Below are positions 1 through 32,000 of a stretch of DNA of 32,000 nucleotides, piece after piece (position 1 is the first letter of the stretch; each line of letters opens with the position of its first letter). A model generated the notes under the pieces. It was not told the origin of the DNA. It did no database searches and saw only the letters and a program-made list of their open reading frames with translations. Made by a program: the position numbers and the translations under genes. This DNA comes from an uncultured archaeon (lineage in GTDB: Archaea; Asgardarchaeota; Thorarchaeia; Thorarchaeales; Thorarchaeaceae): positions 120,001 through 152,000 of the forward strand of contig CAZYLT010000001.1 of the NCBI GenBank assembly GCA_964648855.1. The letters run 5' to 3'.

Positions 1-2
1 GG

Positions 3-296
3 GGTTTGCAGAAGAGGTATGAAAACGTTGCCGTAGGTGAGAGTGATGAAAGATTCAATTTCGCACTCATCCGGGCATTAGAACTCGGCAGCATGCTGGA
101 TTTGGCAGAAGCGATTGCGTTGGGAGCGCTAAGACGAACAGAGAGCAGAGGGGCACATTGGAGAGTAGATTATCCAGAGAGAAATGACAGTGAATTTCTA
201 AAGCATACGATTGTGAAAAGAAGAAAGGGCGAGCTGGAACTGGACTATTCCGACGTTAATCTGGGCCAATTTGAAGTGAAGGAGAGGACATATTGA
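3..296 (+). CDS. sdhA: Succinate dehydrogenase/fumarate reductase flavoprotein subunit, C-terminal part (5' end outside window)
   Basis: Contains ALRRTESRGAHWRVDYPERND...KHT and terminal ERTY, typical of the SdhA/FrdA C-terminus. Overlaps the start of the Fe-S subunit gene. Confidence 0.92.
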   Translation, partial: GLQKRYENVAVGESDERFNFALIRALELGSMLDLAEAIALGALRRTESRGAHWRVDYPERNDSEFLKHTIVKRRKGELELDYSDVNLGQFEVKERTY

Positions 297-17251: not shown

Positions 17252-17704
17252 CTATGTAGTTACTGACAGTTCATTTGGAAGCTCCTCATCGCGGATTGGC
17301 AGAACTTCCAACTGCGTCATAACATTCTCATATTTTTCCATGAACGCATCTTCTAGCGATTCAACAGGTTTACCTGCGAATCCCCGACCTAACAGTTCCA
17401 TTAATTTCTTGAGCTCTATTGCGCCGAAGTTTGCATCGATGACGTTATGCTCAGATAATATCTCTAGATGTTCCATCTCACCGCTATTGTCGTCAGGAAC
17501 GGGGAGCTCATGTGCAGCTCTCAATTTGTCGGAAACAAAGAAACGCAGCAACGCAGATACCAGTGCATCGTAAAAGGCAGCGATAGCATCAGCATTCTCG
17601 CCTCTTTGTTGCCTAATGCGCCCACCACGGATATGGAGTTTTGCTCTCAACAGGAGCTCTTCCTCTTCAGGAATGTCTGATGGGATTAGGTTGGCATGAG
17701 GCAT
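17252..17704 (-). CDS. Hypothetical alpha-helical protein (weakly HEPN-like N-terminus)
   Basis: 150-aa ORF with normal composition: LLRAKLHIRGGRIR...DAIAAFYDAL. Confidence 0.65.
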   Translation of the reverse strand: MPHANLIPSDIPEEEELLLRAKLHIRGGRIRQQRGENADAIAAFYDALVSALLRFFVSDKLRAAHELPVPDDNSGEMEHLEILSEHNVIDANFGAIELKKLMELLGRGFAGKPVESLEDAFMEKYENVMTQLEVLPIRDEELPNELSVTT

Positions 17705-17893
17705 GGGTATCGCTTAATTATGTCTTCAGGGCGCCTAAAGTTTTCCGCTAATTGCAATGGAAATCTTTTCCTCATTTTTGGAGCCATTGTACGTGTTTGC
17801 CAACTCCTTTCCAGTTCAGTATATGCCGACAACTTCATGTATAAAATGCTCAAAGGCATCAGGATAGATAATATAGAAAGGAGAATTCGACCA

Positions 17894-19867
17894 ATGACTT
17901 ACGCATGGGAGCCACCAATTAGCCGCCAAGAATCGAGCTCATCGTCAGGATTGAAATTAATCGCAGTGATTATCATCTTGCTAGTTATCATTGCTGGGGG
18001 TATCGTCGCCATTTTCAACATGGACATTCTTGATACTTCCGGTGAAACTAGTGATGTTAGGATTGCAGTTATCGACTCAGGGGTAAATGCTGATTTTACA
18101 CTTCAGAACCGAATAGTATCTGCAAGGTCATTCGTATCTCCGCTCTATGGTTACGATGAAACAGACACATCTACCTCAGATTCAAATCCCACCCAAGGGG
18201 GGCAATCGGTTCCGCATGGAACAATTGTTGCATCAACGGTGATTGAAAACAGTCCTAATGCAGTCATTGTGAATGCAAAAGTGGTTGCTTCGGATGGAAC
18301 AGCGACTTCCTTGGCACTAATTGCGGCGATATATTGGGCTGTGGAAGAAAACTGCTCGATTATCAATCTTAGCATTGGGTCCACTCCTGCGTACGGAGAC
18401 CCCATGAAAGAAGCGGTGGATTATGCATTCTCGAATGGGATTCTTGTTGTTGCGTCTGCTGGAAATGAGAATTCTGCAGGAGTTGCTGGAACAAGCATTT
18501 CTTCACCCAGTGTGTTTCCCAATGCGATTGCTGTGGCGGCATTAGACCAGGATGGTATGCCAGCGGATTACTCGAGTCGCGGCCCCACGGGTCAAAGATA
18601 CATGAAGCCTAACATTGCAGCCGCGGGTTACGCAGAAACATCTAGTGCCACATATTTTGGAACTAGCTTCGCAGCCCCGCGCGTAGCAGCGGCATGCGCA
18701 GAGCTCATTTCTTACTCCGAGCAAAACAACCTTCGATACACTCCAGGTTCCATTATGGCAGCCTTATTTGAAGGAGCAGACGCCTATGAAGCCCCTAGTT
18801 TTGTGATTGGGGCGGGGATTTTGAATCTAGAAGGTGCCAAGAATGTAATAGCTTCAGCCACTAAAATATCAGGCCTACCAGAGATTACTCATATCCACCC
18901 AGAAGCTCTTCCTCTTTCTTTTGAGCGGCTATTTCTTGGTGACTCCTATGGGTTCAATCTGTTAGTCTACAATTCAGAATCGTTAGATTATGATATTAGT
19001 GTCAATAGCGACAACGAGTCAATCTTTTCTCTAGAGTCCACCGTAAGAATAAATCAGACGGGAATGGTCCATTTTGAAGTGGATATTCCTGTTGAATCCA
19101 TAGGGATATCAGCCACCATAGAGTTTCATTCCGACGTTTCAAGTGCATCTCTGGGCATTCAGTTTGCACCAGAGGAACCCGATGCAAGAATCGCTTTCGA
19201 TATCAGCCATACTACCTGGGAAATGGATACAGTGTATGGACAATTTAAAGAGCTGTACATGGAATTGACTTCGAATCAGATATCTGTCACTGAAATTCGC
19301 AACAGCAGTCTGAACAATTATGACTATTTGAGTCAGTTTGATGCCGTCTTTCTTCTTGATCCCTGCGTATGGGATGTGAATTATACAAATCCCTCCAATC
19401 CGAACATATTCTCACTCCCCTATAATCCTGAAGAAATCGAGGCATATGAGCAGTACTACAAAGAGGGGGGAGGTCTATTTGTAACTGGGTTTGCCAACGG
19501 AAGCACTGATGTAGAGTCTCTGAATGCCTTTCTATCATGGTCAGGTTTCTCTATTGGATACGAATCCATCGTCGGAGGTGGCGACCCAGCCATTGTTACT
19601 AATACGAATGCACATCCAGTGACTTCAGGAGTTGCTTCATTCGCTTATTCGGGAGCTGCTGTGCAATTCAATTCCAGTGCGCAATCATTGGCTGACTACG
19701 GAGCACACTCTCTCATTGGTGCTATGGAACGTACCGGAGGGGGAAGAATCATTGTTACAGGAACTAACTACTTCGTAGACAATTGGGCATTGACTGGAAA
19801 CTATGGCTCATCATCAGACGACATACTATCACTCAAAATAGCCCTCTGGTTGACGGGCATCTTGTAG
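17894..19867 (+). CDS. Membrane-anchored S8 (subtilisin-like) serine peptidase with C-terminal GATase-like domain
   Basis: N-terminal TM helix. Triad IDSG / HGT / GTSFAAP and oxyanion SAGN. C-terminal RIAFDISH...GGGLF...GGRIIV domain. ATG 17894 preceded by AGGAG. Confidence 0.92.
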   Translation: MTYAWEPPISRQESSSSSGLKLIAVIIILLVIIAGGIVAIFNMDILDTSGETSDVRIAVIDSGVNADFTLQNRIVSARSFVSPLYGYDETDTSTSDSNPTQGGQSVPHGTIVASTVIENSPNAVIVNAKVVASDGTATSLALIAAIYWAVEENCSIINLSIGSTPAYGDPMKEAVDYAFSNGILVVASAGNENSAGVAGTSISSPSVFPNAIAVAALDQDGMPADYSSRGPTGQRYMKPNIAAAGYAETSSATYFGTSFAAPRVAAACAELISYSEQNNLRYTPGSIMAALFEGADAYEAPSFVIGAGILNLEGAKNVIASATKISGLPEITHIHPEALPLSFERLFLGDSYGFNLLVYNSESLDYDISVNSDNESIFSLESTVRINQTGMVHFEVDIPVESIGISATIEFHSDVSSASLGIQFAPEEPDARIAFDISHTTWEMDTVYGQFKELYMELTSNQISVTEIRNSSLNNYDYLSQFDAVFLLDPCVWDVNYTNPSNPNIFSLPYNPEEIEAYEQYYKEGGGLFVTGFANGSTDVESLNAFLSWSGFSIGYESIVGGGDPAIVTNTNAHPVTSGVASFAYSGAAVQFNSSAQSLADYGAHSLIGAMERTGGGRIIVTGTNYFVDNWALTGNYGSSSDDILSLKIALWLTGIL

Positions 19868-20101: not shown

Positions 20102-21046
20102 TTATGTTTTTGCTATCTTATCAAAGACCAAATTTGCTAGGAGCACTTCAGTTCCCGCAAGCCCTACTGAACAGAATAGGGTTATATCGTTATCATTTTC
20201 CCGTCCAGATTCTTTGCCGGCAACTATGTCGCCAAGCTCGACCATTCTATTTCTGTGTTTAGTTGACGCAAGAAAATACGGCCGGGTAGGCGTTCCAGTT
20301 GTATCGACTTGAGCCACAGAATCTGTTGCGATGGTGTCACTTCGGTCGGCCACCTCCATTTCAATTTCACTCCTACCTACCAAGTTCTGTGCCATAGTTG
20401 TTACATGCATTCCTTCTTGAAGATGTTCTGAGTCGAATACAGGGGTCGTGCTTCTTGTTGAGCAGATGACAATATCCGATTGGGATACTGCCAGTTCGTT
20501 CGATTCAACGGCATCTATTCGTAAATCGAGTTTCCTGCTCAATTCTTTAGCAAATTTCTCTCTGTGTTTGCGAGTTGGGCTATACACCTTAGCATATTCT
20601 AAATCGCGAACAACCGATGCCGCCACTAGTTGAGCACGAGCCTGAGTACCAGATCCGATAATTCCCACAACCTTTGAGTCAGCTCTTGATAGGTACTTTA
20701 TTGCCACTCCCCCTATTGCTCCTGTTCTGATTATTCCCAATCTGAATCCAAGTGCTAAACCTTTGAATTCGCCAGTAGAACTGTCAAAGACAGCAACTAG
20801 TTGTGTGTGATTCGATGATTCCTTGGGATATGTTTCATATACTCTAAAGCCCACGCCCTCTCCTTCGCCCGAAGCTCCCCCAGCGGTGAAAACTAATGAA
20901 CCATTTTCGACATCAACAGTGAATCGGGGAGGGGCAATCAGATTTCCGCTGACATATTGTTTGAACCCTGTTTCTATTCTATCTATGGCTGTTTCCATGC
21001 TTAATGTTTGGTCAATTTCGTCATCGGTAAGAATGGGATACTTCAT
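20102..21046 (-). CDS. Ornithine cyclodeaminase/mu-crystallin family protein (imine reductase-like)
   Basis: APPR, IRTGAIG, GIIGSGTQA, YSPT, DIVICST, ITLFCSVGLAGTE. Confidence 0.93.
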   Translation of the reverse strand: MKYPILTDDEIDQTLSMETAIDRIETGFKQYVSGNLIAPPRFTVDVENGSLVFTAGGASGEGEGVGFRVYETYPKESSNHTQLVAVFDSSTGEFKGLALGFRLGIIRTGAIGGVAIKYLSRADSKVVGIIGSGTQARAQLVAASVVRDLEYAKVYSPTRKHREKFAKELSRKLDLRIDAVESNELAVSQSDIVICSTRSTTPVFDSEHLQEGMHVTTMAQNLVGRSEIEMEVADRSDTIATDSVAQVDTTGTPTRPYFLASTKHRNRMVELGDIVAGKESGRENDNDITLFCSVGLAGTEVLLANLVFDKIAKT

Positions 21047-21081
21047 CACTATGGTCTCTTTCGTTTTGCTCTGGGCAAGTG

Positions 21082-22206
21082 CTAAGCGAGACGCCCCATA
21101 AGTCTGTCTATGTCTTCCAAGGTGTTATAGAAATGCGGCGAAATTCTAAGACGTCCATTTCTTATTGAACAGAAGACCCGTTCTTTCTTGAGCCGTGCTT
21201 CTAACCCCTCTAAGTTGTTGGGAACACAAGAAACTATGGGGGAATTATGTGCATCTCCGAATTCATAGAAATCAATATCCAATTCCATAAGGCGTTCCTT
21301 GACGTATGAAGCATTCTTCATCGCTCTCTTTTCAATGGAGGAGATTTCGAATTCATCAATAATGCTTAATGCCTTTAAGAAGCCCGCATAAGCCACAATG
21401 GGAACGGAGCCCCCTTCAAATTTCGCTGCATCGTCCGAAAGTTCGCGCTGGAAATATTCAAAATTCCGATGGTTCTTAATACTCCTCCAACCTGGTGCAA
21501 TAGGATTCAAATCAGGCAAAATCTCTTTCTTTACATATGCGTATCCAGCCCCAATGGGCCCCGCAATCCATTTTGTTGCCTGTCCTGCAGCAAAATCAAC
21601 ACCCATTTTTTCCAGGTTGAAATCTTTCCATCCCGCAGACTGGATGACATCTACAACTAGATATCCTCCCTCACCATGGATAATACTTGCAAGTTCTCGC
21701 AAATCGGCTCGAAATCCTGTACCAAATTGGACATGGCTAATAGCAACTATTCGAGTATTAGAATCAATCTTCTGCTCAAATGCATCAGAATACGCAGCTC
21801 CTTCTTCAGACCTGACAATTCTGAGCTCCACCCCATATCTCTTGCTGATATTCTGCCAAGGTATGTAATTCGATGGAAATTCCAAATCGGAAATTACAAT
21901 ATTGGAATTCTGCGAATACTCTATCGCGTGTCCAAAGAAATTCAGACCTAATGATGTGCTGGGAACGAAAGCATATTGTCCGGGGTCTCCTCCGAGAAGG
22001 GAAGACAATTTTGCCTTGATATTCGTATAGAGTGATGCAGTATTCTCACTCTGCCATTCTCCATTGCTTCTCATTGTTGCTAACTCAGTAACTGAATCAA
22101 TGACTGGATCTGACAGCAATCCGGTTGAGGCTGTATTCAGGTATGTTATGTTCTTCAAATTAGGCCAGTATCTGTAGATTTCGCTAGTGAGGATTCGTTG
22201 TGTCAT
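21082..22206 (-). CDS. Class V-fold PLP-dependent enzyme (cysteine desulfurase-like)
   Basis: YLNTASTG, EFPSN, SHVQFGTG, DVIQSAG, TKWIAGPIG (PLP Lys), FEGG, RISPHFYNT. Confidence 0.92.
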   Translation of the reverse strand: MTQRILTSEIYRYWPNLKNITYLNTASTGLLSDPVIDSVTELATMRSNGEWQSENTASLYTNIKAKLSSLLGGDPGQYAFVPSTSLGLNFFGHAIEYSQNSNIVISDLEFPSNYIPWQNISKRYGVELRIVRSEEGAAYSDAFEQKIDSNTRIVAISHVQFGTGFRADLRELASIIHGEGGYLVVDVIQSAGWKDFNLEKMGVDFAAGQATKWIAGPIGAGYAYVKKEILPDLNPIAPGWRSIKNHRNFEYFQRELSDDAAKFEGGSVPIVAYAGFLKALSIIDEFEISSIEKRAMKNASYVKERLMELDIDFYEFGDAHNSPIVSCVPNNLEGLEARLKKERVFCSIRNGRLRISPHFYNTLEDIDRLMGRLA

Positions 22207-22289
22207 GAGTAGATGGGGCAATAAAACAGGAATATATCTGTTCGTTTAGCTACACCGTTCAATGAGGGACTAGCAGAGAGATTAATCAA

Positions 22290-22745
22290 TTAGATGGGGA
22301 CACGACAGCTTTCTTTTATCACTTCAGCTATTATGTGAGTACTGGTTCTCTGAACACCATCTAGGTTCATTACTCTTCTAACAATCTTATTGAAGTCATC
22401 TTGGGTTTCTGCACGGATAAAGGCCAAGTAATCGATTTCTCCATAGGCCCAGTAGACTCTTCTTACTCCCCGAATCTCAGCGATTTGTACACCAAGGTCC
22501 TCGAATCGGGGGCCATGTTCCACGAAAATATGGAGAAACCCGCTAAAAATCAACCCCGTTTTCTCAGGGTCAACCAATGCAGAATAGCCTCTGATGACAC
22601 CCCCTTTTTCTAAACGTTTTACACGATAATGTAATGTTGATATGGGTGTATTCAACCGATCGGCTATCTCTTGGAGGTTTCGGCAATCGCCCTGGAGTGC
22701 ACGGATTAGTTTCCTATCCAAATCATCTAACGAATGCAATTTCAT
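22290..22745 (-). CDS. Lrp/AsnC family transcriptional regulator
   Basis: LDDLDRKLIRALQGD, HTH (IADRLNTPISTLHYRVKRLEKGGVIRGY), RAM domain with GEIDY and GVQRTST. Confidence 0.95.
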   Translation of the reverse strand: MKLHSLDDLDRKLIRALQGDCRNLQEIADRLNTPISTLHYRVKRLEKGGVIRGYSALVDPEKTGLIFSGFLHIFVEHGPRFEDLGVQIAEIRGVRRVYWAYGEIDYLAFIRAETQDDFNKIVRRVMNLDGVQRTSTHIIAEVIKESCRVPI

Positions 22746-22857
22746 CCCTCAAAACCTTATCCCTGCATTGAATAAACAGCAGAGACTGAGCGGTGACAGT
22801 AAAGACACCTATCTCAGTCTACTGATTATAGATAACTTAAACGTTTTCTCTATAGGT

Positions 22858-24195
22858 TTATGTCATATTTTTGGAAATACGTTCCATGTCCACCTCTTCG
22901 ATATTATCAATGGAATGGACTAATGACTCGACAGTTTCAGATGACATATACTTGCTTGCAGATTTTCGAATGTTATTTCTCACCTGCTCCGACGATAAAG
23001 TGGGGAATTCTTGACCACTTATGGTGTAAACCTTGCCATCATCTGTTCGGATTACCACTCTGTTATAGAATCCCTCCGCGTCCTCGTTGGTGTTGATTTC
23101 AACCTTTTTAGATAGCTCGGAAACCTCTTCATCACCGAAATTGTTAGCAGTCACAGCTGAAACTTCTTTGTATTTCAGTGCAATTCCAACAGCGCATGGA
23201 AGTGATTTGAAGGCCTGGGTTTTGTTCACATATGGACCTTCATCAAGAATTGAGGACTTCAATGGCCCTTGAGTTACTCTAGGTCCCGCCATTATTTGAA
23301 TACGTTCTATTTCCTGATATTGAATGTCATTATGGTCAATCAGCATCAAGACGTTATGAATAACGGGTAGAATGGTAGTAATGACACTATATGGTTTCAT
23401 AACCATTTTCAATATTGAGAATTCGTTTCCTAGGTCCGTTGTTATAGGCGATAGATCATCTGGGGCTTCACCGCAATATGCCTTGAAAAAACCACGGTCA
23501 CCTTCGAAGGTATCGGATGCACCGCTTATTGACCTACTAGCTAACTGTGCAGATAGAACACCATTACTAGCAGCGAGTCCACTTGCGTATAGCCATTCAT
23601 CAGTACCAGATAACCAACATTGCATTAGGCCTGAAGATGTATTTGCCGCCATGGCTAAAGCATTCTTAGTTTCTTCTAGTGAAAGACGCAGGATTTTGGC
23701 TGCAGTTGCAGCAACACCAATTACGCCGAATATAGTGGTTCCTCGCCAACCGCGGGGGCTTGTATAGCTCGCACAGAGTTCTCCTAAACGTATGTTGATC
23801 TCGTATCCGGCAACTATTGCAGTCAATATTTCCTTGCCAGACCGAGGGAAGTTTTCTGCAAGAGCAAATGCTGCAGGAATTGTGTGTGGTCCAGGATGCA
23901 GTCCTCGATATGTGTCCTCTTGCTGAATGCTGTGCATTAAAACGGCATTGGAAAAAGTAGCCTTTCTAATAGGGTACTTCTTTTTCAGCCCAAGAACAGT
24001 GGACTTGGCGCCGGACAGTTCCTCCTCGTCCAGTAGAGACAATGCCACCTTCGCTTCTGATTCCTCAACTCCACTATAGCCAGTATGCAAATGATGCAGA
24101 ATTAGGTCCTTTGCCATCTTTATAACTTCACTATCAAGGTCAGAGTAGGAGAGATTGTGCACGAAATTTGCCATTAGTTCAATCAAATCATTCAC
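22858..24195 (-). CDS. MmgE/PrpD family protein
   Basis: NAVLMH...D, LHPG...IPAAFALAE, AIVAGYE, FEGDRGF, KPYS. Confidence 0.9.
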   Translation of the reverse strand: MNDLIELMANFVHNLSYSDLDSEVIKMAKDLILHHLHTGYSGVEESEAKVALSLLDEEELSGAKSTVLGLKKKYPIRKATFSNAVLMHSIQQEDTYRGLHPGPHTIPAAFALAENFPRSGKEILTAIVAGYEINIRLGELCASYTSPRGWRGTTIFGVIGVAATAAKILRLSLEETKNALAMAANTSSGLMQCWLSGTDEWLYASGLAASNGVLSAQLASRSISGASDTFEGDRGFFKAYCGEAPDDLSPITTDLGNEFSILKMVMKPYSVITTILPVIHNVLMLIDHNDIQYQEIERIQIMAGPRVTQGPLKSSILDEGPYVNKTQAFKSLPCAVGIALKYKEVSAVTANNFGDEEVSELSKKVEINTNEDAEGFYNRVVIRTDDGKVYTISGQEFPTLSSEQVRNNIRKSASKYMSSETVESLVHSIDNIEEVDMERISKNMT

Positions 24196-24215
24196 TTTTT
24201 GTTTTCTCCTTATTC

Positions 24216-24998
24216 TTACACGATGTTCATGCCACTTTTTGTTGTAAGCGCCCTAATGAGTGATCCATAGAGTGACACCAAGGTGTATTCTCCTGTTACT
24301 CCTTTGATTGCTGAAGACCTTTTGATTTCCAATCTGGTTCCACCGCCAGTAGCAACAACGTGTTGAAGGGCGTCATCGTTTTCAGGGTCAGATATTAGAA
24401 TAGATGTTGTTCTATCGAATCCGATTCCACTGAGGGCGACGACAGCATGAGCATTCACGTTTCTTGGATATTTCGAGCAAATTCCTCGTGTAGGACCTTC
24501 ATAGAGGGTAGTTTTCTCAGTGATGTCTTCTCCATCATAATCATCTGTAAAACTAAAGTCGATATTTTTGGGATTTTTAGTCGTGATCACCTTCACTTCA
24601 GATAACGTATCTCTCGCATCATAAATACCATCCATGCCAAGTAGAGCACCATGAGGAATCAAGAGCCGAGTGTCATTCTGTGAGCAGACCCTGTCCAACT
24701 TAGAGCTTAATTCTTTCTCAGCTAGCGCAGTGACTGATAGGATGAGCATATCTGTTTTCTCTAGAATAATGGGTGCATATTCCTTGACCACGCGGAAGTC
24801 TGCAGCCTCCACAACCAGATCAACATCCTGTGAGGTGATCTCATCCGAAGATGCCAGAATTTTTGACGGTGCCAAATCCTTTGTCTTATCCTCAACTGGG
24901 TCGTAGACGAATGAAACATCCAATTCGTTGTTCTCGCTTATTCTATCGTATAGGTAGGATCCAATCCTACCAAATCCAACTATTCCAATTTTGTACAT
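24216..24998 (-). CDS. L-aspartate dehydrogenase (NadX)-like protein
   Basis: IGIVGFGRIG, DLVVEAA, LSVTAL, GALLGMD, TKNP, YPRNVN, SDP...QH. Confidence 0.88.
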   Translation of the reverse strand: MYKIGIVGFGRIGSYLYDRISENNELDVSFVYDPVEDKTKDLAPSKILASSDEITSQDVDLVVEAADFRVVKEYAPIILEKTDMLILSVTALAEKELSSKLDRVCSQNDTRLLIPHGALLGMDGIYDARDTLSEVKVITTKNPKNIDFSFTDDYDGEDITEKTTLYEGPTRGICSKYPRNVNAHAVVALSGIGFDRTTSILISDPENDDALQHVVATGGGTRLEIKRSSAIKGVTGEYTLVSLYGSLIRALTTKSGMNIV

Positions 24999-25013
24999 TT
25001 CGTAATCACTTTC

Positions 25014-26312
25014 TCATTTGTTTATAGTGCTAGTTTTTTTGAGAGCTTCCTCTAATCTCTTCATGAAAACATCCACAATAGGTTCAGTAGATATTAGAGG
25101 AGGACACAAGCGCAAGACATTCTGATACGCTCCTGCGGGAAAGACCAGCACCCCTGCTCTCAACAAGTGGTCTATGACCTTCTTTGTCCTGGCTGGTGCT
25201 GGTGATTTGTCTGGTTCCACTATTTCGACGCCAATTAGTAGACCCCTTCCCCGTACGTCTCCAATTAACGGGTCATCGGTCTTGATCTCATTCAATCGCT
25301 CAAGTAGATACCTGCCCACCTTTTGAGCTTGCATCAGTGTATCCTTCCTTTGAAGAATCTCGAAACTCGCTAGGCCCGCAGCACAACTAATTGGACTACC
25401 TGAGAAGGTGCCTCCACCGGAAAAACCAGACATGATTTCCTTATTTGCTACGATTGCTGCAAGTGGAAGTCCATTGGCGATTGATTTGGCGAAGTAGACG
25501 ACATTTACGTCTATGTCATAATAATCGATTGCAAACATATTGCCACTGCGGCCAAAACCCGTGGTGACTTCATCAACTACTAGTTGGATTCCTTCACGTT
25601 TGCAAATCTTGTGTAATCGTGATAGATACTTGCTAGGCATTGGAATAATACCCCCGTGCACTTGAATTAGCTCAATGAAAAAGGCGGCAGTTTCTTCGGG
25701 GGGAATTACATTTGTTTCAAATTGATATTCCAGAAAATCAAGACAGGCTATATCGCAAACACTGGGGTCTTGACCAAATGGGCATCTATAACAATAGGGA
25801 AATGGCTGATACATGATACCAGGCATTTGTGGATAACTGCCTGTGTGGGCGCTGGTGTTCATGGCAAGTGCATCAGTTGAAATGGAACCGTGATAACAGC
25901 CAAAGTGACAAAGTAACATGTGTCTTTCAGTTCGTTCCTTGGTAAGACTCATCACGAGTTCAGTTGCGTCAGATCCCGAAATGCAAAAACCGATTTGTGG
26001 ATTTTCAATCTTGCCCGTGAGATGTTGTAATAGCTTTTCTGCAAGTTTAGTACGAGTCGCATTTCGCATCCAACCATGTGAACAGAAGCCAGTGAGTTCA
26101 ATCTGTTCATTGACAGCCCGTCTAATTTCAGGATGATTATGTCCAAGGTTACATGTTTGACCACCGGATGTGAAGTCAACATACCGTGTTCCATCCACCG
26201 CGGTGACATAAACTCCTTGGCTATTGGATAGAACAACAGAAGGAAACCGATAGTTTTTCTTAATCACGGTTTCATCTTTTTCCATCCAGTATTCTTGGTC
26301 ATGTTTGGACAT
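25014..26312 (-). CDS. Class III PLP-dependent aminotransferase/racemase family protein
   Basis: YVDFTSG, NLGHNHP, SGSDA, YHG, FPYCYRCP, DEVTTGFGRSG, AKSIANG, GTFSG, RGRGL, VLRLCPPL. Confidence 0.93.
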   Translation of the reverse strand: MSKHDQEYWMEKDETVIKKNYRFPSVVLSNSQGVYVTAVDGTRYVDFTSGGQTCNLGHNHPEIRRAVNEQIELTGFCSHGWMRNATRTKLAEKLLQHLTGKIENPQIGFCISGSDATELVMSLTKERTERHMLLCHFGCYHGSISTDALAMNTSAHTGSYPQMPGIMYQPFPYCYRCPFGQDPSVCDIACLDFLEYQFETNVIPPEETAAFFIELIQVHGGIIPMPSKYLSRLHKICKREGIQLVVDEVTTGFGRSGNMFAIDYYDIDVNVVYFAKSIANGLPLAAIVANKEIMSGFSGGGTFSGSPISCAAGLASFEILQRKDTLMQAQKVGRYLLERLNEIKTDDPLIGDVRGRGLLIGVEIVEPDKSPAPARTKKVIDHLLRAGVLVFPAGAYQNVLRLCPPLISTEPIVDVFMKRLEEALKKTSTINK

Positions 26313-26351
26313 TTGGCTAACCTGCTGAACTTGATTATGACTTTTGAAAGT

Positions 26352-26398
26352 AAAGAAAAGGGGGTTCCTCCCACGGGAGAAAAAGTCCCGCAGGAGGA
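26352..26398 (-). terminator. Strong hairpin plus T-tract after the substrate-binding protein gene
   Basis: Minus strand reads TCCTCCTGCGGGA-CTTTTTC-TCCCGTGGGAGGA (13 bp including G-U pairs), then a C run and TTTTCTTT. Confidence 0.6.
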
Positions 26399-26416
26399 TT
26401 AGAGAAAGGAGGGAAT

Positions 26417-28021
26417 CTATGTGAAAACTACATCATGTAAGTGGTAGTCCCAACTGACTGCACCGTACGTAAGTCCTTCAACATTGCCTCTGCTGAATTG
26501 ATATCGAGTTTCTCTCCAAACGAAGATGTTTGGTACCCATTCGGCCCAAATGTCTTGGAGCTCTTCCAGAATCTCGACCTTTCTTGTACTGTTGGTTGTG
26601 GCTGCAGCCTCTGCAACGAGATTATCTACATATGGATACAGACCAGCCATGTCGCCTCCCATAACGTGGGAGAAACCAGGTCCCCAACCAGTGGAAGCGA
26701 TGAACTGTGAGGCCCAATCGTCCGTGGATGGATAGTTAGCGCTCCATGCCCAGAGATTCATCTCTTGAGCTGCACTCTGTTTGTAGCTATCCTTGTAGGC
26801 AGCATACTCTTCTTGTACGATAGTCACATCAAAGCCGGCATCTTCAGCATAGCTCTGAATGAGAGTAGCGATATCGGGCTCTGCACTACCGTAGTGTGTG
26901 GGGGTTATGTGAAGAGTTACCTCTACTGGGGTTGTGTGGCCTGCGTCAGCAATCAATTCCAGCGCCTTAGTGGCGTTGTAGTCGTAGTCAAAGACAGCCT
27001 TGTATCCTTGATACTCTGGTGGTAGGAAGCTGTATTGCCTCTCACCAAGTCCACCAAGTCCAGTGGCGATGATCTCATCATAGGGTATTGCATAGGCGAA
27101 TGCTTGTCTCATGGTCTTATCGGGGAAAACATCCCAAATTGAATCATTCATGTTGAATGTGAGCCATCTGCGAGAGGCACTTGCGCTAACATCGTGTGTA
27201 ATCAGATCAGAGTTCTGGAGTAGGCTTGAGTAGTCAGCAAGATTGAATCTACCATCAGTTGTATCAATCGTGCCATCTTCGATAGCCAATTTCAAGGTTG
27301 CTGCATCAGAGAGCTGTACGAAGACCACTTCATCAAGAGTGATTTCTTCGCCCGCATCGAGTCCCCACCAATTCGGGTTATCCTCAAGGACGACTTCTGT
27401 GTCAACAATTTTACTCACAAACCTGAATGGGCCGGTTCCGACTGGGTGATCGTTCACATTTTCGACGCCGAATGTTTCAATTGCGGTTGGGCTTGGAATG
27501 AAGCCTGCAATATTACATAGGGTGTCGAGGAAGTCGGAGTTAGGATCATTCAATACGAACTTGACTGAGTACTCACTAACTACTTCTGTGTGGTTTACTA
27601 ATCCTTCAGTGTAGATGTAGGTAATACCTGCACCGTGTGTAAAAATGAGGTCAAAGTAGTAATCTACAGCGCTTGCGTTGAAGGGGGTTCCATCGTGAAA
27701 CATAACGTCTTCTCGGAGTGGAATAGTAACTTCTAGCCCATCAGATGATATTGTGGGTATGTCCGATGCAAGAACAGGCTCTAATTCAAGCGTGTCCTCA
27801 ACATAGCCGTACAATCCCTCGAAAATCTGATTCACAATGGGGTCGTCTCCACCGTGAACTGTGAGTGGATGCACTACTCTTCCAATCTCAAACGTCGTTC
27901 CAACCGTGAATTTCACTTCTCCCTCTGCTGGAGGTGTGGCCGACCAAAAATAGAAAAGTCCGCCGCCCGCAACAAGGGCGATAATGACAATAGCGATTAT
28001 GATATTCTTCGTTTCTGGCAT
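26417..28021 (-). CDS. ABC transporter substrate-binding protein, family 5 (Dpp/Opp)
   Basis: N-terminal anchor helix, IFEGLY, LREDVMFHDGTPFNA, HPVGTGPF, RQAFAYAI. Confidence 0.95.
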   Translation of the reverse strand: MPETKNIIIAIVIIALVAGGGLFYFWSATPPAEGEVKFTVGTTFEIGRVVHPLTVHGGDDPIVNQIFEGLYGYVEDTLELEPVLASDIPTISSDGLEVTIPLREDVMFHDGTPFNASAVDYYFDLIFTHGAGITYIYTEGLVNHTEVVSEYSVKFVLNDPNSDFLDTLCNIAGFIPSPTAIETFGVENVNDHPVGTGPFRFVSKIVDTEVVLEDNPNWWGLDAGEEITLDEVVFVQLSDAATLKLAIEDGTIDTTDGRFNLADYSSLLQNSDLITHDVSASASRRWLTFNMNDSIWDVFPDKTMRQAFAYAIPYDEIIATGLGGLGERQYSFLPPEYQGYKAVFDYDYNATKALELIADAGHTTPVEVTLHITPTHYGSAEPDIATLIQSYAEDAGFDVTIVQEEYAAYKDSYKQSAAQEMNLWAWSANYPSTDDWASQFIASTGWGPGFSHVMGGDMAGLYPYVDNLVAEAAATTNSTRKVEILEELQDIWAEWVPNIFVWRETRYQFSRGNVEGLTYGAVSWDYHLHDVVFT

Positions 28022-28059
28022 CTGGGGTTTCTCCCATGAATAGTAGCCTAGTAAAACCT

Positions 28060-28175
28060 CGCTATAAAAGTATATCGTAAGACTTTGGAAAATCGATAGC
28101 CATTTATAAATTATATGCTAAAAAATACCCCTTCTGTTTAGAGTATATGCATAATATACGATAGAATTTATAACT
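28060..28175. promoter_or_regulatory. AT-rich divergent promoter region with candidate operator
   Basis: TTTATAAA at 28103-28110, TTTATAA at 28167-28173, inverted repeat GTATAT-N5-ATATAC at 28143-28159. Confidence 0.5.
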
Positions 28176-28216
28176 GAGCCTAGTACTATGTGGAAAGCGT
28201 ATTTGGTGACCAAAAT

Positions 28217-29224
28217 ATGGCATTCAAAAAGTACATCATTATTAGACTACTGACAATGCTTGTTGTGGTTTTTGTCCTCTTAACATTCATTTTTTTCGCC
28301 GTTCATATTATCCCCGGAGACCCAGTGGCCTCGATGGTTGGCGAAGGGGCAAGTCAGGAGTTTATTGATTCGGTAAGAGAAAGACTTGGGTTAAATAAAC
28401 CGGTGTATCTCCAATATCTCGACTACGTTATTGGGGTGTTTGCAGGTGATTTGGGGTATTCCATTGTCCTTAGCCAGCCTGTTAGTACAGTCATAATCAC
28501 ACGTGCGGGAGTCACAGTCCAGCTGGCTGTGCTCGCGTGGATTGTTTCTACAATCATAGGAGTAGGAATAGGTAGGTATAGCGCCCAGAGACCTGGAGGG
28601 GTTCAGGATCACTCCATCCGTTCTATTACCTTGTTTCTATATGCGGTTCCAGTATATGTATTGGGCATCATTTGTCAGCTCGTATTTGGAGTCTATCTTG
28701 GCGTATTGCCCATATTTGGAACAAACAGTCCAAATGTAAGGCCGCCACGTATTACCGGGATGATTCTGATAGATACTCTGCTTGCCGCGGATATCTCGGG
28801 ATTCGTTGATGCAGCACTTCATTTTGTCTTGCCAGTACTGGTCCTGTCTGCATATTATATTGCAGTCACAATCAGACTAACCCGTTCAGAAACTATGAAA
28901 GCAATGAAACGAACTTTCTGTCTTCTGGCTCAAGCTAAGGGACTTTCCAAGACGCAGATTGTCAAGAAACACGCTTTCAGAAACGCAATACTACCGGTTA
29001 TTACACTGATTGGACTTCAAGCAGGAACTCTACTGACTGGATCTATCCTAGTTGAAACTGTTTTCTCTTTGAATGGCCTAGGCAATCTCATTTACGTTGC
29101 AGCCTCAGCTAGAGATTACATCCTGATACAGGGGGTAGTTACTGTGTTTGTGTTGATAACGTCCCTGATTGGAGTTATTATAGATATCTCGTACTATTTC
29201 CTTGACCCACGGGTAAGATACTAG
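28217..29224 (+). CDS. ABC peptide-family transporter permease (DppB-like)
   Basis: IPGDP, GLNKPVYLQY, GDLGYS, AQAKGL...KHAFRNA, LDPRVRY. ATG 28217 preceded by GGTGA. Confidence 0.96.
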   Translation: MAFKKYIIIRLLTMLVVVFVLLTFIFFAVHIIPGDPVASMVGEGASQEFIDSVRERLGLNKPVYLQYLDYVIGVFAGDLGYSIVLSQPVSTVIITRAGVTVQLAVLAWIVSTIIGVGIGRYSAQRPGGVQDHSIRSITLFLYAVPVYVLGIICQLVFGVYLGVLPIFGTNSPNVRPPRITGMILIDTLLAADISGFVDAALHFVLPVLVLSAYYIAVTIRLTRSETMKAMKRTFCLLAQAKGLSKTQIVKKHAFRNAILPVITLIGLQAGTLLTGSILVETVFSLNGLGNLIYVAASARDYILIQGVVTVFVLITSLIGVIIDISYYFLDPRVRY

Positions 29225-29232
29225 GAGGTTGA

Positions 29233-30123
29233 ATGATGGAGAGATTCAACAAACTGGTTAGGTCTATTCCGGAGCGCGTTCGAACCAACAGAGTCTGGGC
29301 ACTTGAGAGAGGAGAACGAGCTTCATTTTTCATAGGTGTCATCATAGTGGGAGTTATCATCTTCATGGCAACATTTGCAGACTTTGTTGCTCCATTTGAC
29401 CCCCTAGAAATACATACAGACGCTGTTCTGCAACCACCAGGTTGGCCCTACTTAATGGGTACCGATGCACTCGGAAGAGATGTGTTCAGCAGAGGCATTT
29501 ATGGAACCCGGGTATCACTCTTCGTAGGACTCTTTTCAGTTATTGTGGCCACAATTATTGGAGCAACGCTGGGCGTAATCACTGGATACTATGGTGGAAA
29601 ACTTGATCGTTTGATTACATTGCCCATGGATGCATTGTATTCTTTCCCTGCATTTCTCACAGCTTTGTTAATTGTAACTACACTAGGCGGCGGTCTGATA
29701 TTTACCGCAATTGCTGTTGCTTTTGGGCTTCTGCCCAAGTTCTATAGGACAATAAGAAGTGCATCTGTTGCCCTTAAGGAGGAAGACTTCGTTGAGGCAG
29801 AGGTTTCTATCGGTGCCAGCAACTTGTATATTATATTCAAGCACATCTATCCTTTGACTTTTACAGTGCTAGCAGTTGTTCTCACAGTTAGTGTCGCTAC
29901 CTCAATTCTAAGTATTGCTGGACTAGGATTCCTCGGACTTGGTGTGTCACCACCAACACCTGAATGGGGTTCTGACCTTGCAGCGGGAAGACCGTTCATA
30001 CTCTCTGGAGTCTGGTGGACCACAATGAGTCCAGCAGCCTTCATCTTCTTAACCGTCCTTGGTTTTAATTTGGTCGGCGAGGGTCTGAACAAACTCTTTG
30101 GAGCTGCATTGGAGGAGATATAG
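29233..30123 (+). CDS. ABC peptide-family transporter permease (DppC-like)
   Basis: MGTDALGRD, FVEAEVSIGA, LGFLGLG..PPTPEWG, FNLVGEGL. Confidence 0.96.
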   Translation: MMERFNKLVRSIPERVRTNRVWALERGERASFFIGVIIVGVIIFMATFADFVAPFDPLEIHTDAVLQPPGWPYLMGTDALGRDVFSRGIYGTRVSLFVGLFSVIVATIIGATLGVITGYYGGKLDRLITLPMDALYSFPAFLTALLIVTTLGGGLIFTAIAVAFGLLPKFYRTIRSASVALKEEDFVEAEVSIGASNLYIIFKHIYPLTFTVLAVVLTVSVATSILSIAGLGFLGLGVSPPTPEWGSDLAAGRPFILSGVWWTTMSPAAFIFLTVLGFNLVGEGLNKLFGAALEEI

Positions 30124-30124
30124 A

Positions 30125-31096
30125 ATGGAGAAAGTTCTTGAGGTCAAGGGGATAAAGACAAGGTACTTTACTCCGTCAGGGCAAGTGAAAGCAGTAGAGA
30201 ATGTATCGTTCTCCTTACGGAAGGGCGAAACTCTTGGAATCGCTGGCGAATCCGGTTGTGGAAAGACCACACTAGCAATGTCCATTCTGAGACTACTACA
30301 GCCTCCTCACAAGGTTGTGGAGGGAAGCGTAGAATACAAAGGTGTCGACCTGCTAAAGGTTTCAGAAAAAGAGTTTCAGAACTATCGATGGGACGAGATT
30401 TCCCTTGTCCTTCAGCAATCAATGAATGCGCTGAATCCCATGTTGCGAATTTCAGAACAGATGATTGAGCCAATAATGATTAAGAAAAGCATGAAGAAAC
30501 AGGAGGCTCTGGAGCGAGCAAAGGACCTCTTTAGGATGGTAGGCGTCGAGCCTTCCAGAATCACTAATTTTCCACACGAGTTCAGCGGAGGGATGAAGCA
30601 ACGGGCTCTAATCGCACTCTCAATGATTTCAAATCCTGAGATTATAGTGCTCGATGAACCGACTACCGCACTGGACGTAGTCGTCCAGCATATGATACTA
30701 AAACTGATTGATGATATCACGAAGGAATTCGGGCTCTCAGTCATATGGATTACACATGATTTAGCGGTGCTTTCAGAGATGTGTGACCGCGTAATCATTA
30801 TGTATGCAGGTCGGGTCATGGAGGCCGGAACTTCCGAAGAGGTAATCCTTGATCCTAAGCATCCCTATACCATGGGACTGCTCCACTCCTTCCCAACAAT
30901 TGATCAAACTGACAAAAAATTAGAGTCTATACCTGGAACCCCACCAGACCTCATTGACCCACCACCTGGTTGTCCATTTCATCCTCGCTGTAGTTATGCA
31001 ACAGAAATCTGTAAACAAGATCGACCCAAAAATGAAGAGATACCGGGACGGCCAAATTCACAGATTGAATGTCACCATTGGAGGGAGATTGAATAA
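30125..31096 (+). CDS. ABC peptide-family transporter ATP-binding protein (DppD-like)
   Basis: GESGCGKT, FSGGMKQR, LDEPTTALD, ITHD, HPYT, GCPFHPRC. Confidence 0.97.
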   Translation: MEKVLEVKGIKTRYFTPSGQVKAVENVSFSLRKGETLGIAGESGCGKTTLAMSILRLLQPPHKVVEGSVEYKGVDLLKVSEKEFQNYRWDEISLVLQQSMNALNPMLRISEQMIEPIMIKKSMKKQEALERAKDLFRMVGVEPSRITNFPHEFSGGMKQRALIALSMISNPEIIVLDEPTTALDVVVQHMILKLIDDITKEFGLSVIWITHDLAVLSEMCDRVIIMYAGRVMEAGTSEEVILDPKHPYTMGLLHSFPTIDQTDKKLESIPGTPPDLIDPPPGCPFHPRCSYATEICKQDRPKNEEIPGRPNSQIECHHWREIE

Positions 31097-32000
31097 TGAC
31101 AGAACGAGATAAATCAGGTCATATCATCGAAGTTGAAAATCTGAAGAAGTGGTTCCCATTGAAGAAGGGACTAATGGCCTTGGGTGAAGACAAACATGTC
31201 CGAGCTGTTGATGGGGTTGATTTCTTCATTCGAAACCGAGAAGTATTCGGAATTGTTGGAGAGAGTGGGTGCGGAAAGACCACCCTTGGGAAGCTTCTAG
31301 TAAGATTGCTGGAACCTACTGATGGAAAGCTTGAGTTCATGGGCAAGGACATAACTCACATTTCAATGAAGGAGATGAAAGAAGAGCGACGCCAGGCACA
31401 GATTATTTTTCAGGACCCCTTCTCAAGCCTGCCTGTCAGACTCAACACTGAGGAAATCCTTCAAGAGCCATTCAAAATTCATAAGATGGTTAAGAATGAT
31501 AAAGAGGCCCGAGAGAAGATTATTGAGTTGCTGGAAGATGTAGGGCTAGTTCCAGTTGATGTGTTCTTGGAAAAGCATCCCAACCAACTGAGTGGAGGTC
31601 AACGTCAAAGGCTTAGTATTGCGCGATCGCTGTCACTTAAGCCGAAGTTCATCGTGGCTGATGAGCCAGTGTCCATGCTCGACCTATCAGTTCGAGCTGA
31701 GATTCTAAATCTACTAAGGAAACTTAAAGAGGAACACGGTCTTACGCTTCTTCTGATAACCCATGATTTGGCTAGTGCTCAATACATGTGTGATAGAATT
31801 GGAATCATGTATGTAGGAGTAATTGTTGAGAGAGGGCTCGGAAAAGAGATACTTGATACGCCATACCATCCCTATACAATGCTTTTGAAGGCAGCATTAC
31901 CGACGCTAGATCCAAGAACTAAGCATCATTTAAGAGAGCTCCCTACAGAAGAGGAGATTGCAGATCCAATCGACATTCCGAGCGGTTGTCGATTTCATCC
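31096..32000 (+). CDS. ABC peptide-family transporter ATP-binding protein (DppF-like), 3' end outside window
   Basis: Manual translation from ATG 31096 (TAATG overlap): MTERDKSGHIIEVENLKKWFP...GESGCGKT...LSGGQRQR...ADEPVSMLD...ITHD...HPYT...GCRFH. Missing from the ORF track. Confidence 0.96.
   Translation, partial: MTERDKSGHIIEVENLKKWFPLKKGLMALGEDKHVRAVDGVDFFIRNREVFGIVGESGCGKTTLGKLLVRLLEPTDGKLEFMGKDITHISMKEMKEERRQAQIIFQDPFSSLPVRLNTEEILQEPFKIHKMVKNDKEAREKIIELLEDVGLVPVDVFLEKHPNQLSGGQRQRLSIARSLSLKPKFIVADEPVSMLDLSVRAEILNLLRKLKEEHGLTLLLITHDLASAQYMCDRIGIMYVGVIVERGLGKEILDTPYHPYTMLLKAALPTLDPRTKHHLRELPTEEEIADPIDIPSGCRFH

Follow-up and report, generated by a model that had tools for sequence, protein, structure and literature searches.

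A divergent importer and enzyme cluster is one arm of a rare accessory catabolic island of Asgard archaea that may serve the use of a non-standard amide-linked acidic amino compound

The stretch at positions 20102-32000 of the window (the whole stretch of 32,000 nucleotides of DNA that was analysed, part of the 426-kb contig G000:C1 of an Asgard archaeon) encodes a substrate importer and a divergent series of enzymes, and this span is one arm of an accessory catabolic island of ~30 kb that is found in a few Asgard archaea and is carried or missing as a block. In a survey of 201 sampled Asgard genomes, orthologues of an MmgE/PrpD-family protein (PrpD1), an aspartate dehydrogenase-like (AspDH-like) oxidoreductase, a C45 hydrolase and a second PrpD-family protein (PrpD2) were found in an identical set of six genomes (G000, G103, G131, G102, G027 and G164), and an orthologue of the class III pyridoxal phosphate (PLP) enzyme was found in five of these six. 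The explanation tentatively favoured here, on the basis of sequence comparison, is that the island would import and hydrolyse a non-standard amide-linked acidic amino compound and then convert the products. The outline of this pathway is held with moderate confidence, and any named substrate with low confidence. Gene content and conservation were observed; all the mechanistic steps proposed below are ones that we infer.

The genes were labelled by profile searches (Pfam, NCBIfam), and the enzyme labels hold at the family level only, none of the enzymes of the span reaching an NCBIfam equivalog cut-off. The genes of the span, together with the two that follow it beyond the window, are:

20102-21049, minus strand: imine reductase-like protein of the OCD/mu-crystallin family (OCD_Mu_crystall, 190 bits)
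21082-22221, minus strand: class V PLP enzyme, SufS/C-S lyase-like (Aminotran_5, 158 bits)
22290-22745, minus strand: Lrp/AsnC-family regulator (HTH_24 and AsnC_trans_reg)
22858-24195, minus strand: MmgE/PrpD-family protein, PrpD1 (Pfam N domain, 188.5 bits)
24216-24998, minus strand: AspDH-like NAD(P) oxidoreductase (NAD_binding_3 and Asp_DH_C/DUF108)
25014-26312, minus strand: class III PLP enzyme, racemase-like (Aminotran_3, 295 bits)
26417-28021, minus strand: family-5 (Dpp/Opp/Gsi-type) substrate-binding protein (SBP) of 534 amino acids (SBP_bac_5, 239 bits)
28190-29224, plus strand: ATP-binding cassette (ABC) permease 1, Dpp/Gsi-type (BPD_transp_1)
29233-30123, plus strand: ABC permease 2, Dpp/Gsi-type (BPD_transp_1; GsiD is the best NCBIfam match)
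30098-31096, plus strand: ABC ATPase 1 (oligo_HPY C-terminal region)
31096 to the window end (32000), plus strand: ABC ATPase 2 (oligo_HPY C-terminal region), the gene running off the window
G000:C1:152140-152610, beyond the window: DUF6917 protein of 156 amino acids, after ATPase 2 and continuing the permease/ATPase operon
G000:C1:152625-153713, beyond the window: C45 N-terminal nucleophile (Ntn) hydrolase of 362 amino acids, after DUF6917

The named genes, their families and their order were all present as given in the original prediction, which had been made from the letters of the span, and the gaps of 15-20 bp that it reported among three enzymes were measured as 15 nt between the class III and AspDH-like genes and 20 nt between the AspDH-like gene and PrpD1. 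Further minus-strand gaps amount to 104 nt between SBP and class III, 112 nt between PrpD1 and Lrp, 68 nt and 32 nt, and the SBP gene is separated from the divergent permease 1 by an AT-rich spacer of 168 bp with TATA-like runs. Beyond the C45 gene, the opposite strand encodes an M19 protein, PrpD2, a TIGR04076 protein, an unassigned Cys-rich protein, an AstE/AspA-like deacylase and a SelA/DgaE-like PLP protein, followed by a CysK-like PLP enzyme, an M24 protein, a small unannotated open reading frame (ORF), an M20 protein and a major facilitator superfamily (MFS) transporter.

In all five other island genomes these genes were found in one island of ~30 kb, in which the order is partly shuffled and the content is kept. 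The full set, which includes both PrpD proteins, the AspDH-like protein, the importer, one to five C45 proteins, M19, TIGR04076, AstE-like, SelA-like, CysK-like, M24, the small ORF, M20 and the MFS transporter, was found in G103, G131, G102 and G027 when the island proteins were mapped on 30-60 kb around PrpD1, and the contig of G164 stops inside the island. Neighbourhoods were also compared in eight loci from species-representative genomes. The AspDH-like gene lies directly upstream of PrpD1 in these loci wherever that flank is present, and most of the eight show the divergent arrangement with permease 1, permease 2, ATPase 1, ATPase 2, (DUF6917) and C45; the SBP and class III genes of two loci are shifted to the far side of C45, still inside the cluster. 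Orthologues of the SBP (46-64% identity) are present in the island of the five other genomes, and those of the permeases (58-70% identity) in all loci. PrpD1 orthologues of at least 49% identity carry Asgard labels only (Thor-, Heimdall- and Hodarchaeales), the next relatives being at ~30%. The conserved co-occurrence proposed as a check on the original prediction therefore holds, in the same six of 201 Asgard genomes, and it supports the claim of a dedicated uptake-and-catabolism system.

The genes at the downstream end of the span differ in how closely they belong to the island. An Lrp orthologue was found directly downstream of PrpD1 in three loci (L010, L011 and L016), and the Lrp/AsnC gene probably has its own promoter. 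The class V gene is a loose associate, with an orthologue in or at the island in four of the six genomes, and the OCD gene is a neighbour and not a conserved member, being present at or next to the island in two (G000 and G027), with no orthologue found in G103 or G102. The original prediction had called the membership of both genes uncertain. The solved structures nearest to the class V protein are cysteine desulfurases and C-DES. For the OCD protein, a BhcD-type function had been suggested; among solved structures it matches pyrroline-2-carboxylate reductase best, with 159 bits against 93 bits for BhcD, and it scores 137 bits with the BhcD NCBIfam model, the cut-off of which is 500.

Three other neighbours of PrpD1 were observed in these loci. 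A protein of 320 amino acids without a Pfam family is encoded directly downstream of PrpD1 in L009 (L009:11442-12419) and L012 (L012:11404-12354), the two copies being 69% identical, which is closer than the island enzymes are; the gene may be mobile or regulatory. Next to PrpD1 on the other strand, two related genomes encode a DtxR-type iron repressor and FeoB (L013:11410-13888 and L015). An S8 subtilase of 723 amino acids, encoded at 17696-19867 of the window on the plus strand and convergent on the OCD gene, has an orthologue (48-50%) directly beside PrpD1 in G027/L014; it may mark the island border or supply peptides.

The importer is a complete Dpp/Opp/Gsi-type system, composed of the family-5 SBP, two BPD_transp_1 permeases and two oligo_HPY ATPases. 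The SBP, whose closest matches are glutathione and peptide binders, carries an N-terminal hydrophobic membrane anchor, its best NCBIfam match is GsiB at 126 bits, below the cut-off, and its nearest solved structures are 5u4o, GsiB/YliB (1uqw) and HbpA, with AgaA, NikA and CntA among the weaker matches. In E. coli, gsiABCD-iaaA encodes an importer of glutathione and isoaspartyl peptides together with an Ntn hydrolase. The island resembles this system in that an Ntn-type amide hydrolase is encoded alongside a family-5 SBP with permeases and ATPases of the Dpp type, and GsiB and GsiD are the best named matches of the SBP and of permease 2, yet below their cut-offs. It differs from gsiABCD-iaaA in that the hydrolase is of the C45 and not the T2 asparaginase type, in the DUF6917 partner, in the presence of class III, AspDH-like and PrpD-like enzymes, and in its extent of 30 kb. 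In the first step of the proposed pathway, the membrane-anchored Gsi/Dpp-like SBP and the DppBCDF-type ABC importer would take up a small peptide-like compound.

The C45 protein scores 191 bits with NF040521, above the cut-off of 85, and its nucleophile Cys105, invariant in nine sequences, aligns with Cys103 of the fungal isopenicillin N acyltransferase, which is its nearest solved structure at low similarity (E = 2e-12). Isopenicillin N acyltransferase, a C45 enzyme, cuts the delta-aminoadipoyl amide of isopenicillin N. The Drosophila protein Tan, also of C45, cleaves beta-alanyl amides (PMC1285064). Both of these enzymes thus cut non-alpha amides, and the island C45 keeps their Cys nucleophile; unlike them, it is archaeal, is paired with DUF6917 and is often accompanied in the island by a second, diverged C45 paralogue. 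DUF6917 is present in all six island genomes and in three others of the survey, and in the island genomes every mapped copy is followed by a C45 gene. Its predicted structure is a small beta-barrel (predicted local distance difference test score of 96), for which structural searches with Foldseek and VIA-align gave no clear match, the best Z of 4.4 corresponding to generic small beta-barrels. In other organisms DUF6917 is also fused to an M20 peptidase and to a methyltransferase (P0288, P0334, P0338, P0279 and P0337, together with the three oxidoreductase fusions considered below), and its bacterial gene contexts were uninformative. In G027 (G027:C22:227403-243818), two DUF6917-C45b-C45a triplets were observed, with five C45 genes in total within the island.

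Since C45 and DUF6917 are conserved at the end of the importer operon and the island holds four more hydrolase families, an amide-containing cargo is suggested, and because the characterised C45 enzymes cut non-alpha amides, a non-standard peptide-like cargo is favoured. The absence of a peptidase, from which it had been argued that the cargo is not a peptide, holds inside 20102-32000; beyond it lie the S8 protein at 17696-19867, C45, M19, AstE/AspA-like, M24 and M20. That argument therefore fails, C45 and DUF6917 belonging to the same conserved divergent operon as the permeases. The amide bond or bonds of the cargo would not be ordinary alpha-peptide bonds but omega-linked (gamma-, beta- or delta-acyl) or N-acylated ones, or the cargo would contain D-residues. 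In the second step it would be cleaved by the C45 Ntn-hydrolase, with help that may depend on the genome from the M19, AstE/AspA-like, M24 and M20 hydrolases of the island.

The class III PLP enzyme is most similar, among solved structures, to alanine/serine racemase (269 bits), then to isoleucine 2-epimerase, amino-acid-amide racemase and alpha-amino-epsilon-caprolactam (ACL) racemase, down to 187 bits, with gamma-aminobutyrate aminotransferase behind these racemases and epimerases at 184 bits. Like its top-scoring relatives, the Pyrococcus alanine/serine racemase, the Lactobacillus isoleucine 2-epimerase and ACL racemase, it keeps the PLP lysine (Lys276) and the DEV of its DEVTTG motif. The Asp of the EPIQGDxG motif is a racemase feature, also visible in the aligned racemase. 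Unlike the class III fold-type-I racemases, the island enzyme has His219 at this Asp, within an invariant QVHGG motif, and it holds a four-Cys insertion, Cx2Cx8Cx3C (Cys174/177/186/190; residues 174-190; window 25743-25793, minus strand), which is not in the aligned alanine/serine racemase and is conserved, as is QVHGG, in the five class III orthologues compared. The four-Cys motif may be a metal site. In the third step, this racemase-like enzyme would epimerise or transaminate the released amino acid.

The AspDH-like protein has the architecture of L-aspartate dehydrogenase, its NAD_binding_3 (47 bits) and Asp_DH_C (59 bits) domains both scoring above the Pfam cut-offs, and its closest solved structures are two aspartate dehydrogenases, TM1643 and AF1838 (E ~1e-19). 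However, it falls below every AspDH cut-off of NCBIfam, the best score being 139.4 bits against 267. It shares the two-domain fold of NadX (TM1643, AF1838) and human ASPDH and retains the FPRNxN and TxK motifs, whereas the canonical active-site His (His193 of the Thermotoga and His189 of the Archaeoglobus enzyme) aligns with Gln212. In a 20-member alignment this column holds Gln in all eight Asgard orthologues, followed by a variable residue (H, L or Y); His occurs only in some relatives of 41-53% identity, and bacterial members have a hydrophobic residue. His116 is invariant within PHG, where canonical AspDH has PSG or ASG, so that the protein is distinguished from NadX by the Gln at the canonical His, by this new invariant His and by the lack of a nadA/nadC link. 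Relatives of 49-53% identity lie among M20 and M55 peptidase genes, RidA also occurs in the 48-53% contexts, and a relative of 48% identity likewise adjoins a C45 gene.

Enzymes of the AspDH fold use dicarboxylic amino or imino acids, and the prokaryotic AspDH has a conserved active-site His, the shift of which by two residues made human ASPDH a 2-aminomuconate reductase that lacks aspartate dehydrogenase activity (bioRxiv 10.64898/2026.06.05.730449). The AspDH-like protein is comparable to human ASPDH in that the position of the active-site His differs from that of the prokaryotic enzymes (bioRxiv 10.64898/2026.06.05.730449), and because of this precedent and of the Gln at the catalytic His, the label "NadX-like" should not be read as a function. 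The gene is the sole Asp_DH_C gene of the genome. A role in NAD synthesis alone was considered and rejected as unlikely, because nadB (C1:287123-288622, 570 bits, above the cut-off), nadA and nadC are all encoded elsewhere in the genome, on other contigs or far away; the original prediction had correctly stated that nadA and nadC are absent from the span. A NadB/fumarate-reductase-like flavoprotein was also seen at G000:C1:118626-120176, reaching into the start of the window (1-176), with 399 bits against the nadB cut-off of 453.

PrpD1 matches the MmgE/PrpD family clearly in its N domain (188.5 bits), and its C domain, at 24 bits, stays below the Pfam cut-off of 32.1. Its nearest solved structures are cis-aconitate decarboxylase (CAD) and iminodisuccinate epimerase, and its residues were read from an alignment to CAD and from one with PrpD2 and bacterial homologues. 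Four residues, Asp93, His103, Lys207 and Lys272 in the numbering of human CAD (hCAD), are strictly conserved in three solved enzymes of the family (PMC6789909), whose known substrates have a common C4-dicarboxylate substructure bound by these active-site residues (PMC12290011). PrpD1 keeps His88, His100 and Lys267, of which the latter two correspond to hCAD His103 and Lys272, and lacks the other two of the four, Asp93 being replaced by Gln91 and Lys207 by Trp201; in addition, Arg151 stands for His159, and there is no equivalent of His277. The replacements are themselves conserved, Gln91 and Trp201 being invariant in 24 PrpD1 orthologues and Arg151 lying inside an invariant GWRGT motif. In these positions and in its weak C domain, PrpD1 departs from 2-methylcitrate dehydratase, cis-aconitate decarboxylase, iminodisuccinate epimerase and methylsuccinate isomerase. 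No prpB/prpC or itaconate genes were seen near PrpD1.

Because the equivalents of Asp93 and Lys207 are gone and Arg replaces His159, the iminodisuccinate epimerase activity that had been invoked is not transferable to PrpD1. The aspartate/iminosuccinate interconversion ascribed to the dehydrogenase meets the Gln212 at the catalytic His and the score of 139.4 bits against 267, and the BhcD comparison meets the stronger match to pyrroline-2-carboxylate reductase and the presence of OCD in only two of six genomes. The specific chemistry of the original prediction rests on family names, and with these markers missing, the activities are unsupported. Its broader idea of a dicarboxylic amino compound fits the family-level chemistry of PrpD and AspDH, although the defining residues or scores are missing. 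In the fourth step of the favoured pathway, the coupled AspDH-fold and remodelled PrpD-fold enzymes would yield a central metabolite from an acidic amino, imino or hydroxy acid of the dicarboxylate type, and in the fifth, the Lrp/AsnC regulator would sense the amino-acid product and control the divergent promoters, with the class V enzyme as an occasional accessory. An alignment of the divergent promoter regions across the loci yielded no conserved operator, and a scan for sigma-70 promoters and terminators gave fewer matches than shuffled sequence, sigma-70 not being meaningful for an archaeon.

Several observations weigh against this explanation. DUF6917 is fused elsewhere to GFO/IDH/MocA sugar-type oxidoreductases in three cases, which makes a sugar-derived cargo conceivable, remoter relatives of the AspDH-like protein (41-46% identity) adjoin sugar-acid dehydratases, and archaeal Opp/Dpp-type transporters are known to carry sugars. 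Moreover, neither racemase nor transaminase activity can be assumed for the class III enzyme, in which His219 occupies the position of the racemase Asp and the transaminase Glu, and the role proposed for PrpD1 would be a guess, since its active site is remodelled.

A substrate-specific importer with a catabolic cluster is a known kind of system, in which the enzyme subfamilies found here have altered hallmark residues. It is conceivable, at somewhat lower probability than the favoured pathway outlined above, that an acidic amino compound with an amide linkage is processed by an as yet undescribed pathway of the island, in which the PrpD, AspDH and class III folds perform new chemistry together and DUF6917 is a new accessory of C45. 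In such a pathway the PrpD substrate site may have been rebuilt, the AspDH catalytic His moved and a His placed at the specificity position of the class III enzyme. Candidate cargoes would include D- or omega-linked pseudo-peptides of bacterial necromass, amino acids of the succino or succinyl type, and chelators. A literature search turned up no work that treats this combination of genes or DUF6917, and none linking PrpD with an aspartate dehydrogenase in a pathway. If new chemistry is confirmed, the reaction range of these folds would be widened, as human ASPDH recently showed. The current automatic names 2-methylcitrate dehydratase and aspartate dehydrogenase are probably wrong, because the hallmark residues are changed, as they are across these PrpD-like, AspDH-like and class III PLP subfamilies. 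Most knowledge of Asgard archaea comes from genome sequences, and what they feed on is deduced from annotation; with its own importer and over 20 genes, a sharply bounded island that is carried whole or not at all offers a testable handle on a nutrient of some sediment Asgard archaea, not of most.

Among the other explanations, the one that survives best, while being unlikely, is that of an N-substituted dicarboxylic amino acid as a non-peptide cargo (opine-, iminodisuccinate-, ethylenediaminedisuccinate- or metallophore-like), with the PrpD-like protein as epimerase and the AspDH-like enzyme opening the C-N bond or handling iminosuccinate. The shared C4-dicarboxylate substructure of PrpD-family substrates (PMC12290011) and the dicarboxylic amino and imino acids used by the AspDH fold (bioRxiv 10.64898/2026.06.05.730449) would suit such a compound, but PrpD1 is without some residues that iminodisuccinate epimerase, CAD and methylcitrate dehydratase have in common, and no opine dehydrogenase or oxidase and no C-N lyase was seen. 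Some family-5 SBPs bind opines or metallophores, and AgaA, NikA and CntA are among the weaker matches here, although the SBP scores GsiB and HbpA above opine or nickel binders; the DtxR and FeoB genes adjoining PrpD1 would agree with this reading, but they occur in only two closely related genomes. The conserved C45 of the operon and the four further hydrolase families of the island also argue against a cargo of this kind.

Salvage of a glutathione-like compound, of another thiol or of a gamma-glutamyl peptide is a doubtful alternative, and a less probable one than the N-substituted cargo. The Gsi-type importer would act with an Ntn hydrolase replacing gamma-glutamyl transferase, M19 and M20 would be Cys-Gly-type dipeptidases, and the class V, CysK-like and SelA-like proteins would handle the sulfur amino acid. 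In favour of these roles, Cys-Gly is a substrate of M19 and M20 dipeptidases elsewhere, and the Ntn hydrolase gene iaaA stands together with gsiABCD in E. coli. GsiB and GsiD are the top NCBIfam matches of the SBP and permease 2, GsiB and HbpA are among the nearest structures, and the island has SufS/C-DES-like, cysteine-synthase-like and Cys-rich TIGR04076 proteins; however, all scores are far under the cut-offs, and the conserved trio of class III, AspDH-like and PrpD1 enzymes would be left with no role.

The catabolism of an ectoine-like cyclic amidine or of an N-acetyl-diamino-acid compatible solute is improbable. It would assign M24 as ring hydrolase, the AstE-like protein as deacetylase, the class III enzyme as diaminobutyrate transaminase, the AspDH-like enzyme to aspartate semialdehyde and the Lrp protein to the role of a DoeX-like regulator. 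These roles draw on the match of the AstE-like protein to DoeB/EutE (its sole NCBIfam match, 94 bits; cut-off 402.7), of M24 to DoeA (77 bits; cut-off 575), of OCD to EutC (148 bits; cut-off 471.65) and of the class III enzyme to diaminobutyrate transaminase (263 bits; cut-off 671), but none of the four comes near its equivalog cut-off (402 to 671 bits), and the M24 protein scores peptidase models higher. Known ectoine importers have binding proteins of other families, and C45, the PrpD proteins, M19 and M20 would have no place in the pathway.

Least probable of all is that the genes serve plain peptide uptake and the general breakdown of amino acids, or the synthesis of NAD by way of an aspartate dehydrogenase of the NadX type: a Dpp-type importer, the adjoining S8 protease and AspDH as the closest named family of the dehydrogenase speak for it, but ordinary peptide use is probably not the role of a module that is rare and all-or-none (six of 201 genomes), that has remodelled active sites, including Gln for the conserved AspDH His, and whose genome encodes a nadB above the cut-off, nadA and nadC elsewhere.

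Outside the Asgard archaea, remote bacterial PrpD homologues (~30% identity) occur in mixed and uninformative contexts, e.g., with an Asp-Al_Ex transporter and a NadB/Frd-like flavoprotein, in TctC clusters or with a molybdate ABC system. On a Synergistales contig (L017/L018), a PrpD homologue of 31-33% identity lies behind an Asp-Al_Ex transporter and a NadB/Frd-like flavoprotein, an arrangement that echoes the pairing of dehydrogenase and PrpD with an unrelated oxidoreductase. As for the remainder of the window, no tRNA or Rfam element was found in it, its G+C content is even (0.41-0.47), and it also encodes an ATP-dependent DNA ligase, an archaeal-type GTP cyclohydrolase and methionyl-tRNA synthetase (MetRS).

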